A stretch of 64,000 nt of DNA from assembly GCA_963833985.1 (NCBI GenBank), contig CAWIAD010000001.1, forward strand, positions 3,328,001 to 3,392,000, given 5' to 3'. The position numbers were made by a program, and so were the translations under genes. Origin of the DNA: an uncultured Planctomycetaceae bacterium (GTDB lineage Bacteria > Planctomycetota > Planctomycetia > Isosphaerales > Isosphaeraceae). Of this stretch, positions 2,885 through 49,840 are shown piece by piece. Below the pieces are notes generated by a model that saw only the letters and a program-made list of their open reading frames with translations, searched no databases and was not told the DNA's origin. Every line of letters begins with the position of its first letter. Position 1 is the first letter of the stretch.

Positions 2885-5686
2885 AGTCCTCGCGGCCGCG
2901 GAGCGGAGCCAGGTCGGGGTCATTGGATTTCAAGCCCAGGAACTGGAACGGCTGGCGAAAGAGCCCGGTAGTGCGGGTCTCGCGCAGCAACTGCATGGCA
3001 CGGTCCAGGTAGCTCTTCGCGCGGCGGGCTTGGTCCGCCACCGCCAGGTTGCCGTCGCGGCGCGCGGCCTCGGCGGAGACGCAACAACAGCAGGCTGCGT
3101 ACAGCAGTGCCATGCCGGAGCGCGACGAGGCCGCAAGGATCTCTTCGGTCGCCTCGATGGCGTACTGGTGCTTGCCGAGCTGTGCCTGATAGATCATGTA
3201 AAGGATCTCGATCAGGCAACGATTCTCCACGAAGAGAGCCACGTCGGGGTGCTCGCGCGCAGCCGCTCGCTGATCTGGCGGATCTTCGTGTGTAGCACGG
3301 GGACCTTGCCCGATTTCCGTGCGTTCGAGTAGACCGCGGCAATGAGCATGCACGAATCAACCAGGCTCGCCTGGTACTCGATGTCCGTGCCGTGCTCGAC
3401 CGCCAGCTTCTCCCGCACCTTCAGCACCTGGTCAAAGAGTTGCTCCGCCTGGGTCAGATCGCCGGAAAAACCCTGGACTGCTCCGCGCAGCAGCAGCGCC
3501 TCGGCCTGCTCGTTCAGGTAGACCGGGTCTTCCGGACTGCTCTCCAGCAGGTACCGGCATTGCCTCAGGCTCTCGCCCAGCACCTGCTCGCTGGCCCCCG
3601 GATCGCGTAGAACCAGGCCGAGAAGCCGGGCCAGATGGTTGAGCGTGGTAGCGGCCTGCAAGCGATGCTTCGGAACATGCTCGTGTTCCCGGAGGATCCC
3701 CTTCAGCAGGTCGATGGCCCGCTGGTAAGCGGCCCTGGCCTCGGCGGGCTGGCTGAGGGCCTTGTAATTGCTGCCCAGGCAATCGAGCGCTCGGGCCAGC
3801 TCGCCCCTGTACTCAAGATGCGCCGGGTAACTTTGCGCGAGTTGTTCGAAGATGCTACAGGCCTGCTGCGAGAGTGGGACCGCCGCTCCGGGCTGCCCCA
3901 GCTCCTGGTTGAACCTGGCGAGCCGGACGCAGAACCTGCCGCGCTCCGTCTCGACGCGCGGCTCGTGGTTTTCCTGCCGGGCGAAGATGTCGTAGAAGTC
4001 CTTGCCAAGCTGGAGAAGTTCCTGACGTTTGCGCTCCAGCCCGCGCGACTTGAGGGCGGGGTCGTCGACGATCGTGCCGTAGAGCTGATCGACGGCGGCC
4101 ATCGCGAGCTGCAAGTTGTTCCTGGCGCGCTCGTGCGCCGCGGTCTCGCGGATGGCTGACAGCTTGAGAAAGACCGTTGCTGCCGAGAGGACCATGGTCG
4201 CCACCAGCAAGCTGGCCAGGCAGGCCGTGGCCAGGGTGCGATGCCGGCTGGTCCAGCGCCTGGCCCTGGCGGTCCAGTGCTCCGGGTATGCGGAGACGGG
4301 CTCGTCCGCGAGGTACCTGCGCACGTCGTCGGCCAGGTCCGCCGCGTGGATGTAGCGGTCTTGCGGCGTCTTCGCCAGGCACTTCAGGCAAACCGCCTCG
4401 AGCGCCGGTGGTACTTCGCGGACCAGCTTCCGGGGCGGCTGGGGCAGCTCCTCCACCACCTGCCTGAGGACCTCGTTGACGCTTCCCCGGAACGGTGGCT
4501 CGCCGGTGAGGATCTCGTACAGGATGGCGCCCAGACCGTAGATATCGCTCCGTTCATCGACCAGGTCGGTCCGGCCCAGCGCCTGCTCGGGCGACATGTA
4601 GCAGGGCGTGCCCAGCAACTCGCCCGGTACGGTATCGGCCGAAGCGTCGGGGAATCGTTGGACGGCTGCCACCGGACTGTCCTGCGGTTCAGCCGCTGTG
4701 TGGTCGTGTTCCGCCGGCGATTCCTGGGCCTGCTCGACGATCCGCGCCAGGCCCCAGTCGAGCACCACAACCTCCCCAAAATCGCCCAGCACCACATTCT
4801 GGCCCTTGATGTCGCGGTGGATCACCCCGCGGCTGTGGGCGTAGGCGATCACCTGGCAGACGCTCTGGAATGCACCCAGCAGTTCGCGAAGCTGGATCGA
4901 GGGCTCCGTGCCGCCGGTGCGCTGGCGGTGATACTCGCGGGCAGACTCGGTCAGCGTCCGTCCGCTGATGAACCGCATGGTGTAAAAGGGCGCTTTGCCG
5001 TCGCCGCCGGGCTCAAGCTCGTACACCGGTGCGATGCCGGGATGGTGCAGCCGCCCAGTGACCCGTGCCTCTCTGAGGAATCGCGCCTGGGCAACGGGAC
5101 TCAGCGAAGTGAGGGGCCGCAAACGCTTCAGCGCGATCTCGCGCCCGAGGTGGTGGTCATAGGCGAGCCAGACCTGTCCGATGCCGCCCTGAGCATGAAT
5201 GCGGTCCAGCGTATATCGCCCGCCAGGGAAGACGCGTTGAGCCCGAGATGAAGCGGGCACACCATCGGCTCCGTGGTCGTCGCGTGGATCCTCCGGCGCC
5301 GGCGACGCCGACACAGTGTCCGTGCCCGCATCGGCCGCAGACGCTTCGCTGGGCCACCATGGCGCCGGGCACTCCGCCGGCAGCGATCTTGCCATCACCA
5401 GTTCGCGAAAAGCCGATTCGACCAGCGTGTGCTGGTCGGGAAAGCGGCTCAGGTAGTCCTGGGGGGTCGGCTCCTCCCCGCGGGTCCGGCGCAGCTCGAT
5501 CTCCAGCCCGATGAGCCGGTAGAGCACGGCGGCTCGATCCTCCGCGCTAGCCTCGCTCAGATACTCTTCAATGGGACGGGGAGCCTGGCGCCGCCAGTCG
5601 GCCTCGAACTGATCGCACACCTTGATGGCTCTCTGGAGCAGCGAGAGCGACACCGAGGCGGGTGCGGTCTTCTCGGCCTGGGTCAT
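2826..5686 (-). CDS. Hanks-type Ser/Thr protein kinase with TM helix and C-terminal TPR-like region; frameshift near 3240
   Basis: QGGIGQV, ALK, HRDIKGQN, LDWGLA, GTPCYMSPEQ, SDIYGLG motifs; ORFs 3212..5707 and 2826..3353 join; ATG overlaps the ECF stop (ATGA). Confidence 0.9.
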
Positions 5687-6303
5687 GCGCTTTCTCCTGA
5701 GAGCCACTTCTTGCGAATGAACTCAAGCTTGTACGCCACCGTCCGCGGCGAGCACTCCAGCCGCCTGGCGATCTCGTCCTTCGTGTACCCTTCAAGCCGC
5801 CAGATCGCGATCTGGCGGATCGCGTCGTCCCCAAGCACCTCGAGCAGCCGGTCGAATTGCTCGGCGATCATGGCGGCGAACTCGGGCGTGGGATCATGCC
5901 CGATGATCGCGTCCAGACCCTCCTGCCAGCCGGATTCCGACCCCACGAGAGCCGATTCGGTGAGCACACGACCGGCACCGCGCTTCTGGCGGCCCTGCCG
6001 GACGCGCTGGTCCGCCACTTTCCGCGCGGTGATCACGACCAGCAGCCGCCAGAGATCGTCACGATCCTTCAGCAGGGGAAAACGACCCTGAGCGGCCCCC
6101 CGGCAGAAGCTGTCGAACGCGCTGAGTGCCGCGTCTTCTTCATCGGCCTCGGCGCTCCGCCTGGGGGAACTGATCAGCCTTGCGTGCGCCAGGCGCACCA
6201 GTCGAGCGAAGTAGCGCTCCCAGAGTTTCTGCGATGCCTCCTGGTCCCCCTCCTTGAGCAGCGAGATCCATGAAGTCACTGAACCCGACTCGTCTTCTGC
6301 CAT
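5683..6303 (-). CDS. ECF-type RNA polymerase sigma factor (Planctomycete, kinase-associated type)
   Basis: SVTSWISLLKEGDQEASQKLWERYF, DEEDAALSAFDSF, DRDDLWRLLVVIT, LEGYT..EIA..LECSPRTV. Confidence 0.9.
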   Translation of the reverse strand: MAEDESGSVTSWISLLKEGDQEASQKLWERYFARLVRLAHARLISSPRRSAEADEEDAALSAFDSFCRGAAQGRFPLLKDRDDLWRLLVVITARKVADQRVRQGRQKRGAGRVLTESALVGSESGWQEGLDAIIGHDPTPEFAAMIAEQFDRLLEVLGDDAIRQIAIWRLEGYTKDEIARRLECSPRTVAYKLEFIRKKWLSGESA

Positions 6304-6675
6304 CAGAACACCCTTGAGGTTCAGTCTTTGAGGAGACCGGTCGCCATCTGCGACGCGGACGTCCTTCAAACCGGTTATTCACTTCATGAATGGCGTGGCA
6401 TGCTGTCATCCCACGTGTCTCCGACCACGCACAGCAGTCTGCATGGTGCTTTATTCTAGCTCTGTTGTGTTGCGAGTGACACGGACAAAAGTCAAGTCGT
6501 GCGAGGCAAACACGAAGAGGCGGGATCCGACGTCAGTGGCGAGGCACCTGGCGGAGTTCGAAGTCTTGAAAACAAGCGGCTCGCGGCATACTCTGAAGCC
6601 CTGTCGATCCGAAGTCAGCAGGGTCTCCCCTGCGGAAGCTTCGGTCGATGCACGCCCCACAGGAGCCAGATCATC

Positions 6676-6999
6676 ATGCCGACTGTGACTGTTGATGGTG
6701 AAAAATCATTCGAGGTCGATCCGAACAAGAAACTGGTCCTCGCCATCGAGGACGCCGGCATCGATATCATGCACCGCTGTGGCGGGAACGCGAAGTGCAC
6801 GACGTGCCGCGTCGAGATCCTGGGCGGCAATGTGGAGCCTGCGACCGGACTCGAGGAGGCCCGGCTGGCTCGCGAAGGCGAGATCGCACCGAATATCCGC
6901 CTGTCGTGCCAGATCCGGGTTCAATCCGACCTCTGGGTGGCCGTCATCAATCGATCTTCCGTTCAGGGCATACCCCCGGGAAACCGGCCCCAGGATTGA
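6676..6999 (+). CDS. 2Fe-2S ferredoxin
   Basis: HRCGGNAKCTTC...RLSCQ cysteine pattern; AGGAG upstream of ATG. Confidence 0.9.
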   Translation: MPTVTVDGEKSFEVDPNKKLVLAIEDAGIDIMHRCGGNAKCTTCRVEILGGNVEPATGLEEARLAREGEIAPNIRLSCQIRVQSDLWVAVINRSSVQGIPPGNRPQD

Positions 7000-42725: not shown

Positions 42726-43935
42726 TCAATGCCGCGGCCCCGCGCCGACCCGGCTGGAGAGCTGCTCTGCCCGTTTCTCGAGGAACTGGCCGGCGCGCTC
42801 GCGGCCATAAGAGATCAGGCCGTTCAAGAACGCGGCGCTGCGGTCAAACCGGGACGAATCATCAAGGTTATGCTCCATGACAATCCGATGGATTTCGATG
42901 AACCGAGAATCCCCGCCGATCAGCCTGCCTTGCTCCAGCAGCCGGTTGATCGATCGGATGAAACGGACCTCCTGCTCCAGGACCTGGCTACTGGCCAGCT
43001 CAACTGGATCCACGGCGCAGACAGGGAAGGCCCCGGCACGCCGGTCCTCAACCTTGTTGATCTGGATGAGCCAGATCTCACTCGGCTTGAGCCGGGCCAG
43101 TTCGCGAACGGGTGAGCCTGTGGCGAGGACAGCCCCTACGTCGCGAGAGTGCCGCGGGGCAAGGCAGAACCCGGGTTGCGATCTTCAAGGTCTCCATGTC
43201 GACCTCGGCCCCGCGCTGGACGTCGAGAGTGCCGTTTGCATCGGCGGTGCCGATCACGAGTTGCGTCGAGCCGGCTCCCCCGGCCTGTGACCGTGCTCGC
43301 GTGGCATGCCAATCGAGCCGACGTCCCAGCAAACCGCAGAGTTGCTCGGTACTCAGGGCCGTGACATCCTGAAGCCCATGAACCGGAAGCGGCACGAGTG
43401 CTCGAAGTTGCAGCGCGATCTGGGCGGAGTAGTTCAGCAGGGCGTCCACCACGGAGGCTGACGAGTAGTCGCGCCAGAAGCCTTCCAGCTGCTCCACGGC
43501 CTGGTGCGGCCCGCCGCGGAGTAATCCGTCCCAGGCAAGGACTGCGCAGAGAGATCCGAACGACGTGCCCGCCAGCGCAACGACCTCGATCTCGCTGCTG
43601 CCTTGCTCCAGCAGCCCTTGGAGCACGCCGGCCGTGAAGGCCGCCTGGCTGCCCGTGCCCTGGCACATCACGGCGACGCGTCTGCGGTCCGCGACGGGAC
43701 CGGAAGAGTCGGTTGCCCGCGGGTCGCCAGTGCCGGGGCCGAACGGCTCGTCGCCGAGCAGCACGTCCCGCAGCGTTGCGAACTGTTCGTGGTCGATCCG
43801 GCCTGTGTCCCGCAGGTCCTGGATCTCCTCCAGGCAAAGCTCGACCGCCTCGTCCTTGCCCGGGTAAAACGCGTGCCGAGCGATACGCGTCACCGATCCC
43901 TTCAACTTCTGGAAATAGGTGGCATTGTCCAGCAT
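42726..43935 (-). CDS. Patatin-like protein with extra N-terminal helical domain and degenerate motifs; frameshift near 43140
   Basis: CQGTGSQAAFTAGVL, GTSFG, IWLIQIN, QEVRFIRSIN, SRFDRS; ORFs 43078..44073 and 42726..43013 join. Confidence 0.7.
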
Positions 43936-44275
43936 GGCACCCTCAGGGCCAGCAAAATGGTGCGGGGTGGCAGTTCCCGCCCATTCCGGCCCTTTGCATT
44001 CGTGGACCTGAGCCGCCCGGGCTCTTTCACCAGGACCTTCCGCCCGCTCATGGTCAAGCACGACCCGCTGCAAGGTCTATTATCAGTATTGCCGATATGG
44101 GTCTGGAGGATGCAACGAAAAACGAAGCAATATTCAATATAGTTCGCATCGGTCCTGTGCACGGCCACGGGGTATTGCTTGAAAAAGAGTTTAATCTCGG
44201 ACAGAGTTGAAGAGTTGTCCCGGACATGACATTAAACTGTGCCCGGCAGTCCTACCCCTGCTGGCATCATTGGGT

Positions 44276-44311
44276 GGGTTGGCGGCAGAAAGGGCATCCG
44301 GCTGTAAAACC
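44276..44311 (+). repeat. Possible metazoan SINE conserved-box fragment
   Basis: gggttggcggcagaaagggcatccggctgtaaaacc resembles the GGTTG...GAAGGGCATCCG..GTAAAAC box I recall from animal SINEs. Confidence 0.45.
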
Positions 44312-44538
44312 TTGCACACACCTCAGTGAGTCCTTCTCCCTACCTCTGCTCTTCAGTTGTCCCTCCGCAACTGGACATTGTCTGGATGGGGGGTTGGCTT
44401 GGAGCAGAGATGGATGGAGGGCTCAAAGAGGGAAACGTCCAATCCGTGCGTAGCACGGACAAACTCAAACAATGCTCAAGATCTGAGGTTTGAAAAATCG
44501 ACGAAAAATGCGGAGAGAATCATACAAATTGAATTTAC

Positions 44539-44921
44539 CTGTCGGGTTTAAGTCGTGGGATGATGGGTTGAAGCTGTCGGGTCAAGACAAACACGCAATC
44601 AAGCTTGTGACAGGCTGCAAGCTTCATGACATCCGATGGTGAGATCTTGTGCATGTTCACTTCCCTGCGGTTGGTGAGAAAGAGAATGGCTGCCAAAGCA
44701 TCGTACGTGACGTCGTACACCTCAATGCGTGACCGCATTCCGCGACTCTCTTTGTTTCTCACAAGCAAGAAGAGCTGATTGCCGAGAATCGCTGCCGAGC
44801 TCATATGAACCATTTCACTCTCACGCACCCACTGATCAACACGCGGATGGTCATCGTCCAATAGCGGCAGTCCGATCACGTTCGATTGGCTGGGCTGCGG
44901 GTCTGTACCTAGCGGCGGGAT
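44539..44921 (-). CDS. Internal exon of an animal gene, NHL/beta-propeller-like
   Basis: Minus strand: acceptor ttgttttcgcgcag| before 44921, donor cag|gtaaat at 44538; encodes ILGNQLFLLVR...IEVYDV...LAACHKLDCVFV. Confidence 0.5.
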
Positions 44922-44979
44922 CTGCGCGAAAACAATAGCAAACTTTATTATAATTGTAATTATAATAAACTTTATATAT

Positions 44980-45015
44980 CCCCAAAACCCCAAAACCCCA
45001 AAACCCCAAAACCCC
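44980..45015 (+). repeat. Ciliate macronuclear telomere (C4A4)4C4
   Basis: Exactly ccccaaaa x4 + cccc (36 nt) at the start of the AT-rich segment. Confidence 0.95.
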
Positions 45016-45027
45016 AATCGATTGAAT

Positions 45028-48000
45028 TCATTAAGAACTTAATTCCTCTATAATCTTCATCATAATTTTCATGACATGTTCACCTTCTGATCATACTTAT
45101 TCAGGATCTTCATTCATCTTCTCTACTTTTTATTTTAGAACTTCAATATCATCCCTAACAGGAGCTTTCTTATCTGGATTAACAAAAGATTCTAACTCCC
45201 CATAGCTTAGTCCTAGTATATCTTATCCTTACTTGTAGATATCTTCATTGTCTCAGCATGGAATCTCATCAAGATGAACTCATTGCTAATGAGAACCTAT
45301 AGATCAAATCAAGTCAAAGGCTACTGCTCTGATTATGAACATTCCTGATTTAGCTGTGTCTCATATTTGATCTAGCTTTTAGTTCATCTAATTCAATTTC
45401 TTCATATCTTTACCTAAATCCTACTTTAAGGATTTCTGCATCGAATCAATATCTGATACTAAAGATTCATTTTCTTGTTATAACTATCCTACTTTCATCT
45501 TTAAGCTCGATATCTATTATTCCTTTCTATCTATTTCAGACTTATATTTCTTCTTAATTTCCTTTACTTATGATTCTAATAAATCTTCACTATTGGATTA
45601 TTTAGGTAGAGGCTGTTACTAAGCCTTCTATTTAAGATCTTTTGTAATTGTTTCTTTTCACTGGACATCTAATTTAAGTGATTTTATTTATTCTCTTTAT
45701 TTCTCTAAGTCCTCAGATAATACTTATTCTCATTACTTAAGTTCATCTAATTGTTGTTTCAATTCTTTTATTCATGCATCTTTCCTACTTAATTCTTTCT
45801 ACATTTTACATATTTTCTCTAGATCTTCCTTTCATTCCTCGAGTTCTTCACATACTTTCTCTGCTTCCTACATTGACTATGTCTTCTCTTCTTTAATTTT
45901 CTACACTAGATCTTTCTTTCACTATAACTCTTCTTTCATCTACTTAACCTAGCTTTATAGCTCTCTTTCAACTTCTTTACTTTTCTAATACTATTCTGGA
46001 CATATCCAACTCTACTTCATTTTCTACACCTCTTATCTTAGTTCTTCTCTCTCTTACTTCATCTACTTATTCATCTCCTTGACCTCCTTCTTCTTCTCAT
46101 CTAATTATTGCCTCATAGTCAATTCATTCTACTCTTTCTCCTCTACTTGTTTATTCAGCTATTCGTTCTCATCTCATAACCTATGCATCATAGTCTTCAA
46201 CTCACTACTCTCATTCATATGCTTTATCGCCTTAGACTCTGAGAATGCCAATTACTTCATAGTTTACAGATCACCTATGCACAGATCTTCATTCTTTTGC
46301 GATTTCTTTGATTCTTTTAGTTGTTATTGTAAAGATTTTACCACAGCCTCTCTTTGGGATAGTTCAAACAGAAGGTTAGGAAGTTGGTTATCTTAGCCTT
46401 GCTTAAGCTTAGAAAATTCAGAAGAGATACGAGTTCACATGAATTCTATCTATGATTCATACATATTGACAACTTACTAGTTCTAAGCCTGGATTGATTA
46501 AATTTCTTTCTTGAAATCCTATGCTAGAGTGTCTAGCTCTAGTTACTTGTCTGATAACTATGCTTAGAGTTATTAACATCTAAGTTCTAAATCTCTTACC
46601 TTATGTACTTCAAATTACTCTATCTTCGAGAATGATAACTATGTTTACTCTATTTAGGAGTTTAGTCTAAATGTTCCTTCCTTTAGCTCTTCATTTTCAC
46701 ATTATAACAACTAAACTTATCCTTATCTGTCTTATAATTGCTATTAAGCTATCTTTAACTGCTTCTTTATATTCTTCTTCTCTGTCTCAAGTTACTATAC
46801 CTTCTTGATGATTTCCTCTATTTCTTAAGTCTAAGATGATTAAAGGGCTTAATATCATTAGTTTAGATCCTCTAGCATTTAAAGAGTATTTGATTAATCT
46901 TCTTTTAACAGAATAAGTTACTACTCTTTGTATTTCAATTCTACTAATGCTTTCTATAAATCTTATCTCACAGAATAACTGTCTTCATTTTATACTTCTG
47001 TTCTATTCAAAGATTAATTCTCCTTGAATTTCTACATTCAGAGTATTTCTTCAGTAAGCTCATTAATTTTATCTCTCTACTACTTCACTATATTCTCTTC
47101 TTTAATCTTCTTCCCTCATGCAGAATCTATAAATCCTTCAGTATCCGAATGAGAATGTCGAGGTCCACTTGTCTATCTATACTTCGACTTCTTCTTAATA
47201 GAAGTAGCCAACTTTGATTTCTCTTCTATCCAAGACTCTTCAGAGGATTTCACTTAGGAAAGTTTCTATTGTAATAATTTATTTTCTGATTCTAGAAGTT
47301 TTAATAAGGATGATGATTGTCAAGAACTTTGTAATGAATCTTCTAAAAGTCATGATTAGGCAAGATCATTTGATAATAGTTTGTTTTATGTTTGAAGAGA
47401 TGTTATTTGCTGTTTAAGATCTTTGATAGGAGATGAATTGTCTTCAATATTCGATTATGGGGCTTAGTTAGTAGCTTATATCAAATTCTTTAGATCAGAT
47501 ATTTCTCTTTCTTTTGAAGAATTGCTCTCTTTAATCTTCTTTAATTCAGATTTCAACTATAGATTTTCAGAATCAAATTTCTCATTTTATTTCATCATAA
47601 GCTCAGCATTCTATCCTATGGCTTTCACTTTATCATTTAAAGATTTCTCATTCTATCACATTATATACATCCGTTCCTCTAATTCTTTCCCTACTTCCTC
47701 TGCTACTTTCAATTTATCTTTATACATTTCTATCTCAGATCTTCCAGAATGAGGAATCTACTCAATATCTGATTTGATCAGAATACAAGTTGAATGAATT
47801 GATGATACCTCTCAAAACACTTCTTGTAGATTCTTAGCTAGTCCCTTAATAGAAGCATTAAATTAGATTGTTCCAGTGATTTGCTAAGAAAGTTTATCTA
47901 CCTAACTTTATAACTCAATAAATTGTTTCTCTACAATAGAGGATTGAGTTTCTAAAAGTTCAAGATACCATATATTTCATTCTTATTCACCAGTAGGAAC

Positions 48001-49839
48001 ATAGTTGACAAGATGATCTATCTAATGACCTGAATTTCATTGAAGAATAGATGAAATTGTTTGTGATAGTTATCTAATCACAAGTCTTTATGTTCATTCA
48101 ACTGATGATTAAGATTGCAAAGGAGCATGCTCTTACTAAATTGAATCAAATGCTGAATATGTAAGAGAATCTCTTCTATCATTTCTATGTGTAAGCACAG
48201 AAGCTGTCAGAGTATCATTAAGAGCAGTATTCTTTACAGTGGATTACATTTCCTTTTCACATACATAACTAGCCAAGTATAAAATTGTATCAATGAATGG
48301 ATCTATCTCTTCACTTGATTAATAATTAAGTGCTGTTTAACCATAAGATTCTAAAGCCTCTGCTTCTCTTATTCTAATCTCTTCGATCTATTTAGATTCT
48401 GAAGGTTGAAGAATTGAACTTTTGTATACAGATCCGGGCTATAGTTCATCAATATCAAATGCTTTATCTCTCTATTTTCTATTTGATGAGTATTGATTAT
48501 CATCATAGCATGCTTCAATCTCTCACAATCATTCATTTTGTTTCTGTATAGTTCATAAGTATTCTTTCTCTTTTCTTCCACATCTTCTAACTTCACATAT
48601 TGCCTTTCCTTCTAATCTTTTAGACTATATTATCATTTCTGTCAATATTGAAGGAGCAACAACAAATTCTCATGGTTTCAATAACCCTGCATTTATTTGG
48701 TTAACTATCTACATTGATGAATTCTCAAAACTTTATTCTTTGCCTTTCTTCTTTATACTACTAACTTCCTATTTCTATTAAGGTTTATTCAAAATAGATT
48801 CTAAATCTTATATTTCCTTTTCTTTAGTAAACACAAGATCAGATAATGATGCAGCTCTTTCTTCACTCTCCTCAAGTTGTCACATATAATATTCTAATTT
48901 AGATATTAGATTATCGTTCTACTTCTCTAACTCTTGGTTTTCGGTTAAGAATTGTTATTTAGATTGTAGAAGCTCACCTGGTGATTATCCAGGCTCATAT
49001 TTATCAAGAACTTATTTTAATCAATGCTCACATTCTAGTCTCATTATTGAAAGTTGCTTCTCATATTCTTCTCTTAAATTGTCAATAGAATGTTGATCAA
49101 CTGATTATGAAACTTACTTTTGACTTTATTCAAGGATTTATATTTCTTTTCGTAATTCATCAATTTGAATGTCTCTAAGTGTTAATTCCCTTCTTAGTTA
49201 TAATATTTATTCTTCATCAACTAAAATAATAGGATTCATCTACTTCACTTCTATGGGTTTCTATTTTCTAAAATCTTCAATCAACATTTCTTTATCTAGA
49301 AGTTCTTAGGATAGAGTCCTGTTTAGTTCTCATATTTCAATTATCTCATTAAGAATGCACTGCTCGGATGTCTTTATTGCAATGAGTTCTTTAGATAAAG
49401 ATTCATTAATGTTCTAAGAAGTTCCTAAGACGACTGTTCATAGATGATTATCAAAATAAGATTATAGTTAATCTCTCATAATATTTGTAAAGTCTTCTTT
49501 AGATGATTTAGTTTACTTTGATTACTTCAATTTATCTATCTAGAGTTTTAACTATAATCTTGTTTGTTATTCACTATAAAGTTTTGAATTTGTTTCATTT
49601 TAAAGCTTTTATACATCTTTAATTAAGGATGCACATTCTTTAAGTTTGGATTACTAGTGATGAATTGATTATTCTAATTATATAAATATTTTATTTTCCA
49701 ACTACTATAGATTTAATTCTTCTAAATTTGTGCTATTTAATCAATCAACAAATTTATTGGTCTAGAATCAACTTTATTTTAAAATATTCTTTGTATTCTA
49801 ACTCAACTAAGATCTTTTACTCTATGATTGATTTGAATC
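45028..49839 (-). CDS. Large coiled-coil ciliate protein (possibly centrosomal), 5' truncated, non-standard genetic code
   Basis: One minus frame (codons starting at positions divisible by 3) gives E/K/L/Q-rich heptad sequence over ~1600 codons with no intron or frameshift, if TAA/TAG = Gln and TGA is read as sense; ends ...IIEELSS-TAA-TGA 12 nt before the telomere. Confidence 0.88.
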
Positions 49840-49840
49840 T

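Follow-up and report, generated by a model that had tools for sequence, protein, structure and literature searches.

Reassignment of all three standard stop codons has been claimed for seven spirotrich ciliates by Chen et al. 2023 (Mol Biol Evol 40:msad064, PMC10089648), in which TAA, TAG, and TGA are read as Gln, Gln, and Arg (Q/Q/R) in Uronychia setigera, U. binucleata, Sterkiella, Tetmemena, Stylonychia, Paraurostyla, and Uroleptopsis. In that paper, the coding regions of U. setigera contain 5922 TAA, 5801 TAG, and 987 TGA codons, all TGA codons of a tubulin ligase (5/5) match Arg, and a predicted TGA-cognate transfer RNA (tRNA) is drawn and described in the legend of Fig. S13. The Uronychia genomes were first annotated with translation table 6 (PMC8670190). 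A 2023 critique by code specialists counts “at least eight” ciliate codes, and the portion of it available to us does not mention Arg. In our full-text literature search, UGA = Arg in a nuclear code was claimed in Chen et al. 2023 (PMC10089648) alone, with no mention in the available parts of the other ciliate-code papers checked. Here, we describe a gene with in-frame TAA, TAG, and TGA codons in a 64,000-nucleotide stretch (hereafter, the window, to which all coordinates refer) of contig CAWIAD010000001.1 in the bacterial assembly GCA_963833985.1. An earlier reading of the same DNA (hereafter, the original prediction) had proposed TGA = Arg as a new genetic code, a novelty that does not stand because Q/Q/R was already in print for seven spirotrichs including U. 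setigera. The window gene is a new case of the code that was claimed in 2023, and it is of value as an independent confirmation and for how heavily it uses the codon.

The segment at 45017-49839 is likely part of a gene-sized (nano)chromosome from a spirotrich-like ciliate, mis-assembled into a bacterial chromosome. It carries a single coiled-coil gene with one conserved domain and a code in which TAA and TAG specify Gln, TGA specifies Arg, and Trp is still encoded by TGG. The Arg reading of TGA is well supported, and TGA in the window gene very probably stands for arginine. The coding frame (45031..49839, minus strand) comprises 1603 codons of a large coiled-coil protein, the 5' end of which is cut by an assembly junction, and contains 32 internal TGA, 89 TAA, and 66 TAG codons. 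When the last codon (45030-45028) is included, the minus-strand frame 49839..45028 has 1604 codons and 33 TGA, together with only a few TGG (3) and CGN (4) codons, 39 AGA, and 6 AGG. TGA thus makes up 40% of the Arg-type codons (32/80), and 49% in the ortholog L174 described below. This recount agrees with the original prediction (about 32 internal TGA, about 3 TGG, about 4 CGN, and more than 100 TAA/TAG), and all TGA positions that it cited (49332, 48531, 48525, 46176, 45921, and 45660) are present.

On the same strand, TGA occurs 33 times in the coding frame vs. 46 and 90 times in the other two frames. In-frame TGA is not avoided, and a role of TGA as a stop codon only is therefore untenable. 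Stop codons are abundant in all six frames, and because every frame is full of them, an open frame is no proof of coding at this locus. Using a self-trained codon score, which is partly circular, the coding frame scores best in 62 of 63 sliding 150-nucleotide windows, and no intron-like sequence was found around the weak spots of this score. Pfam returned nothing above cut-off for the window protein, with only sub-threshold coiled-coil matches (SOGA, NYD-SP28_assoc).

Homology provides the independent view of this frame. A whole-protein homolog search yielded no match at E<=1e-3 among 7997 candidates scored; a HMMER scan with residues 380-730 recovered 25 environmental proteins at E<=1e-3 (best 1.1e-12), which have in common a domain around the motif W-Y-L-E-L-L-E. 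This conserved domain (residues ~570-700; 47740..48132, minus strand) is common to environmental eukaryotic proteins, based on the HMMER matches, a distant alignment of homologs (alignment A1), and 28 loci found by scanning metagenome contigs with the domain alignment. Pfam searches of four homologs gave nothing above cut-off. Most metagenome homologs use TAA/TAG as Gln and contain no in-frame TGA. The exception is L174, a public metagenome contig of 3173 bp with a guanine-cytosine (GC) content of 28%, which has 25 in-frame TGA in 1057 codons. The window frame aligns with L174 over 1064 residues (37% identity, E 3e-155), without a frame change and through the TGAs of both genes, and all 20 window TGA codons within the aligned span pair with it residue for residue. 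As judged from this alignment, L174 is a true ortholog of the window gene. Because L174 aligns through the TGAs of both genes, which is the decisive check of the frame, the window frame is real coding sequence and TGA is a sense codon. Another homolog with the same domain, L175 (metagenome contig Ga0307968_1008979, match 5626-6732), contains 4 in-frame TGA, 0 TAA, and 1 TAG, with one TGA where two other homologs have Cys or Trp. L175 may represent a different TGA-sense code, e.g., TGA = Trp or Cys, in another ciliate.

The ortholog bears directly on the idea that the frame is a decayed pseudogene or non-coding and that its TGAs are damage. Stop codons throughout all six frames leave open-frame logic without any support for coding, which is the point in favor of this idea. 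The 41.6% identity over 949 residue pairs with L174, the lack of any frameshift, three TGA codons conserved as TGA, and a consistent codon periodicity and heptad pattern speak for a functional gene, and decay is effectively refuted. Other sources of the TGA codons were also considered. Introns or frameshifts are ruled out by the codon-score scan, the lack of intron-like sequence, and the ortholog alignment without frame change; 2% of codons is much too high a share for selenocysteine; and an artefact of deamination or base calling is ruled out by the same codon usage in two other independent assemblies and by the conserved TGA-TGA pairs.

To assign a residue to TGA, codon partners were tabulated across the 949 residue pairs compared between the two orthologs. 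The partners opposite TGA in either gene (n=34) are Lys (11), Arg (8), Gln (4), Ser (3), Asn (2), Tyr (2), and one each of Glu, Val, Ala, and Phe, and there are 3 further TGA-TGA pairs (45253..45255 and the codons starting at 45774 and 45660, minus strand). Seen from the partner side, TGA is faced by Arg at 8 of 47 sites (0.17), by Lys at 11 of 247 (0.045), by Trp at none of 6, and by Tyr at 2 of 24; for other well-sampled residues, the share is <=2.6%. The partner profile of TGA (Arg 0.20, Lys 0.27, TGA 0.15) is close to that of Arg (Arg 0.17, Lys 0.32, TGA 0.17), unlike that of Lys (Lys 0.60, Arg 0.06). Using the alignment’s own substitution table, the log-likelihood is best for Arg (-82.1), followed by Lys (-89.6), Gln (-98.9), Cys (-109.0), and Trp (-121.1). 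Composition-adjusted BLOSUM62 also ranks Arg first (Arg -78.7, Lys -85.7, Trp -102.3, Cys -105.9), and again when limited to the 19 best-aligned sites (Arg -40.0, Lys -43.2). The alignment shows TGA to be a sense codon that, by these measures, evolves as an Arg codon. Leu, Gly, Trp, and Cys, whose codons TTA, GGA, TGG, and TGY lie a single mutation from TGA, are absent from its partners, although Lys, which is two steps away, is common; therefore, the pattern reflects amino acid selection and not mutational proximity. For the other two codons, Gln is the top partner of TAA (38/107) and TAG (22/61), the same pattern as for CAA/CAG (24/63).

Lys is the residue that competes most directly with Arg, and several observations weigh against the Arg assignment in its favor. 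Lys is the single most common TGA partner (11/34), uncorrected BLOSUM62 prefers it (66 vs. 52 for Arg), and two of six TGA codons in a kinase gene of another ciliate (L134, see below) align with Lys of human PLK1. A separate point against the preferred reading is that the organism in the window contributes one gene only, and a low-complexity one. The proteins are, however, rich in Lys (247 Lys vs. 47 Arg sites), and composition-aware scores place Arg ahead by ~7 nats in two calculations. True Lys sites pair with Lys in 60% and with Arg in 6% of cases, whereas TGA pairs with Lys in 32% and with Arg in 24%. When 34 Lys sites were resampled, eight or more Arg partners were rarely obtained (P=0.0013), as were 11 or fewer Lys partners (P=0.00035); resampling of 34 Arg sites gave the same counts at 0.40 and 0.29. 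TGA also falls on the HRD Arg and the GDSR Arg in metagenome-assembled genome (MAG) G001, described below. The Lys preference of uncorrected BLOSUM62 is regarded as a composition effect, yet it is the main reason that Lys stays a rival, and we consider TGA = Lys in the window organism unlikely.

Conserved positions and the coiled-coil register provide a further view of the residue encoded by TGA. The sole well-conserved column containing a TGA codon (47977..47979, minus strand) lies three residues before the Trp of WYLELLE; it is Arg in most homologs, and L174 has AGA. Among 23 distinct metagenome homolog contexts, this column holds Arg 18, Lys 3, and Gln 2 times, and 26 stored protein matches have Arg (12), Lys (9), Thr (2), Gln (2), or His (1). 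Other TGA columns of alignment A1 are mixed. The TGA at 48525 aligns with Arg, Arg, Thr, Lys, and Leu; those less favorable to Arg are at 48555 (Tyr, Tyr, Phe), 48531 (Trp, Tyr, Met, Lys, Phe), and 47814 (Glu/Asp/Gln/Ser/Asn), together with the variable columns 48096 and 48039. Apart from 47979, these columns are given little weight owing to their poor alignment and a different placement by BLASTP, but they do speak against a clean signal. By leave-one-out assignment of heptad positions, TGA occupies a/d in 3 of 20 cases and lies mainly at e/f/g. The a/d share is 0.15 for Lys, 0.20 for Glu, and 0.22 for Arg (0.15-0.22 across Lys, Glu, Gln, and Arg) vs. 0.62 for Leu and 0.57 for Ile (0.57-0.62 across Leu, Ile, and Val). 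The low a/d share of TGA resembles that of Lys/Glu/Gln/Arg, and the encoded residue is therefore polar.

These results also bear on a Trp reading in which stops depend on context, known from the karyorelict and Condylostoma codes (NCBI tables 27 and 28). Both codes are established in ciliates and combine TAA/TAG = Gln with a sense TGA, and the TGA columns 48555 and 48531 hold an aromatic residue in two distant homologs. All 6 Trp sites are TGG-TGG pairs, none of which faces TGA, and Trp scores 24 to 39 nats below Arg. Reading TGA as Trp would also produce 2.2% Trp in a coiled coil (35/1603 residues), mainly at e/f/g heptad positions, and in the G001 kinase, Trp is encoded by TGG while TGA lies on the HRD Arg. 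We therefore consider a Trp reading very unlikely and retain Arg.

Support for the Arg assignment outside of this gene family comes from a scan for the C4A4 telomere type in bacterial and archaeal genome records, mostly MAGs. At least 142 stretches were found (132 loci, L001-L132), mostly mis-binned ciliate chromosomes, and contamination of prokaryote bins by gene-sized chromosomes of ciliates appears to be common. One MAG, G001, contains several telomere-bearing contigs without long frames under any simple code. Its polo-like kinase gene (L134) has 6 TGA, 2 TAG, and 4 TAA codons within the 216 codons of a Pkinase match (E 1.6e-59). Compared to human PLK1, the six TGA codons correspond to Ala, Arg (the HRD Arg), Lys, Arg, Lys, and Arg, and the conserved Trp of DIWSIG is TGG. 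The PP2C gene (L003) of the same MAG has TGA at two motif arginines, those of GDSR and ekERi. The MAG also encodes a Kelch-repeat protein (L004; Pfam match, E 5.4e-35), and at the putative Arg position of its motif, as set by the Kelch consensus, two repeats have TGA and three have a standard Arg codon. The HRD Arg and GDSR Arg positions are not normally occupied by Lys. The G001 genes show that C4A4-telomere ciliates with a TGA = Arg code exist.

The use of G001 as support also has its weak sides. TGA in L003 lies on the Lys and Gly of KGS.DN and on variable positions as well, the link between G001 and the window ciliate consists of shared features only (telomere type, AT-richness, and three stop codons in frame), and the window protein had no match in five MAGs with ciliate contigs, including G001. 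Ras and Helicase_C matches in G001 and G002 were all stop-free and presumably bacterial. Twenty G001 contigs (C400-C419) have standard-code frames of 248-918 codons, no telomere, and a bacterial appearance, and the ciliate share of G001 looks small, i.e., a handful of contigs. Among the other telomere loci, L037 has long frames only when TAA/TAG are taken as stops and looks Euplotes-like. L013 and L070, from the isolate genomes of Shewanella algicola and Enterobacillus tribolii, contain C4A4 x3.5 inside large contigs and could be chimeras or chance repeats.

Taken with the ortholog, these data bear out most of the decoding proposed in the original prediction. TAA and TAG behave as Gln codons, as their partner pattern in the L174 alignment equals that of CAA/CAG. 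The preference for Arg over Trp or Cys is upheld by the best likelihood in two tests, by column 47979, and by the motifs in another ciliate, and a check of Trp and Cys columns found every Trp site to be TGG-TGG and both residues to score far worse than Arg. An internal control had been proposed from a repeated C-terminal motif with AGG/AGA in two copies and TGA at the same position in two others; the AGG/AGA Arg of ‘LSRKDA’ and of ‘IDRKEQ’ is TGA in L174, and the TGA at 45660 is TGA in both genes. The L174 and G001 genes also carry TGA in frame.

By pure inference, UGA would be decoded by a tRNA-Arg whose anticodon UCA would have arisen from UCU or UCG by a single base change that kept C35. 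Counting against this route, a tRNA with a UCA anticodon was found neither among the 10 tRNAs of G001 (0/10) nor in 60 telomere loci (0, with 1 tRNA in all). The same result favors an alternative without a reassigned tRNA, in which UGA is edited to CGA in messenger RNA (mRNA), or in which near-cognate reading is efficient and ambiguous (Arg with some Trp or Cys). The DNA evidence would look alike for U-to-C editing, mixed decoding, and the tRNA route, a further point against the preferred reading. To our knowledge, nuclear U-to-C editing has not been described in ciliates. In two diverged orthologs, 40-49% of Arg-type codons are TGA, and TGA occupies catalytic Arg positions, which argues for efficient and faithful decoding. 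Chen et al. (PMC10089648) discusses stop-codon decoding by near-cognate tRNAs, citing Roy et al. 2015, and the TGA-cognate tRNA predicted for U. setigera in its Fig. S13 speaks against that alternative. We give editing or near-cognate reading little credence relative to a dedicated tRNA-Arg.

With each of the three stop codons read as sense, termination would depend on context. The window organism would have no dedicated stop codon and would terminate near the mRNA 3' end, as in Condylostoma and karyorelicts, with 45030 or 45093, the final two TGAs, as the probable site. The last in-frame TGA (45028..45030, minus strand) is preceded by TAA and is a candidate terminator located 11 bases from the telomere. 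By its position, the second-to-last in-frame TGA (45091..45093, minus strand) is an alternative candidate and would leave a 74-base trailer to the telomere. In three G001 chromosomes with a 3' end (L001, L003, and L044), the last in-frame TGA lies ~114, 168, and 120 bases from the telomere (counted by eye) vs. 11 or 74 in the window gene.

The setting of the gene in the assembly is that of a foreign insert. The whole genome (10.16 Mb) consists of two contigs with 65% GC. GC content along the window is 63-69%, but ~31% at 44.9-49.8 kb, and the insert coincides with the sole island <42% GC in the 10.16 Mb genome. It also contains the sole genome-wide run of the repeat CCCCAAAA. This C4A4 telomere repeat (44980..45016, plus strand) consists of CCCCAAAA x4 followed by CCCC (4.5 units) and identifies the 3'-proximal end of a gene-sized ciliate chromosome that now lies within a bacterial contig. 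The telomere pattern has 3 overlapping exact matches at 44980-45016 vs. 0 expected (100 shuffles). The C4A4 telomere type is associated with spirotrich ciliates. An 11-base subtelomeric spacer (45017..45027, minus strand), recognized by inspection, separates the last in-frame TGA from the telomere. The telomere is present at one end only (C4A4 x4.5), the opposite end having been lost at the chimeric junction at 49839. Based on composition, this right edge (49839..49840) is a sharp switch from 30% GC ciliate to 63% GC bacterial DNA, without a telomere. The C4A4 telomere and the isolated ~31% GC island bear out the ciliate origin that had been proposed for this DNA; the assembly contains no other contigs of this organism, since its 10.16 Mb include neither a second low-GC island nor a second C4A4 run.

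Beyond the telomere lies an AT-rich stretch of 50 bases (44930..44979, from inspection). It ends the interval 44173-44979, the preceding ~760 bases of which have ~50% GC and match neither the bacterial (65%) nor the ciliate (31%) composition. No open reading frame or Pfam match accounts for 44173-44979 or the AT-rich piece. The bacterial left flank (42900-44172) is duplicated with 100% identity in reverse orientation in the other contig (G000:C2:6624008-6625280), ~20 kb from its end. This duplication points to a mis-join, or to a repeat, at the breakpoint of the chimera. The right flank of the insert had no match except itself, and Pfam searches of open reading frames adjoining the junctions were uninformative, with no single bacterial gene shown to be split by the insert. 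Because of the sole low-GC island and sole C4A4 run, the abrupt junction, and the duplicated left flank, the insert is interpreted as an assembly chimera with a truncated ciliate gene-sized chromosome and not as a gene transfer. Gene transfer is unlikely because the bacterium would be unable to express a frame with 188 standard stop codons.

Together, these loci provide independent DNA evidence from three unrelated assemblies for heavy TGA use, which extends from a coiled coil to catalytic arginines. We slightly favor the broader view that one uncultured lineage of C4A4 ciliates has been sampled three times (the window, L174, and G001), in which all 64 codons are sense codons, UGA makes up 40-50% of Arg-type codons, and termination depends on context. 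This lineage would be a further independent origin of a nuclear code without stop codons, and the only one with UGA = Arg; leading ciliate-code reviews have yet to include such a code. If so, these ciliates lack a dedicated stop codon and provide a test case for telling termination from decoding. Gene callers set to table 6 will lose whole genes or parts of genes in such organisms, and a two-contig assembly is still able to hide a 4.9 kb eukaryotic chimera.

Compared to described nuclear codes, the window gene shares TAA/TAG = Gln with the standard ciliate code (table 6; Oxytricha, Tetrahymena), in which TGA is the sole stop codon, whereas here 32 TGA codons lie inside a gene whose frame is validated by homology. 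Euplotids are a spirotrich lineage with C4A4 telomeres. Their code (table 10) is alike in using TGA as a sense codon, but TGA specifies Cys and TAA/TAG are stops; the window gene has 155 in-frame TAA/TAG codons, and Cys scores 27 nats below Arg. Ambiguous codes without a dedicated stop were reportedly described by Swart and colleagues in 2016 for Condylostoma magnum (table 28) and Karyorelictea (table 27). Both resemble the code in the window in TAA/TAG = Gln, in TGA as a sense codon inside genes, and in context-dependent termination, and differ in TGA = Trp, whereas here Trp sites never face TGA and the telomere is of the C4A4 type. Compared to the Q/Q/R code of Chen et al., the window organism is known from one gene, unlike the species of that study, and its local GC content (31%) is lower than the genome-wide values of two Uronychia species (36.4% and 45.9%). 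TGA is relatively more common here, with a TGA/TAA ratio of 0.36 in the window gene and 0.46 in L174 vs. 0.17 in U. setigera. The two share the same three assignments, probably the same kind of host (a spirotrich with gene-sized chromosomes), and TGA at conserved Arg positions.

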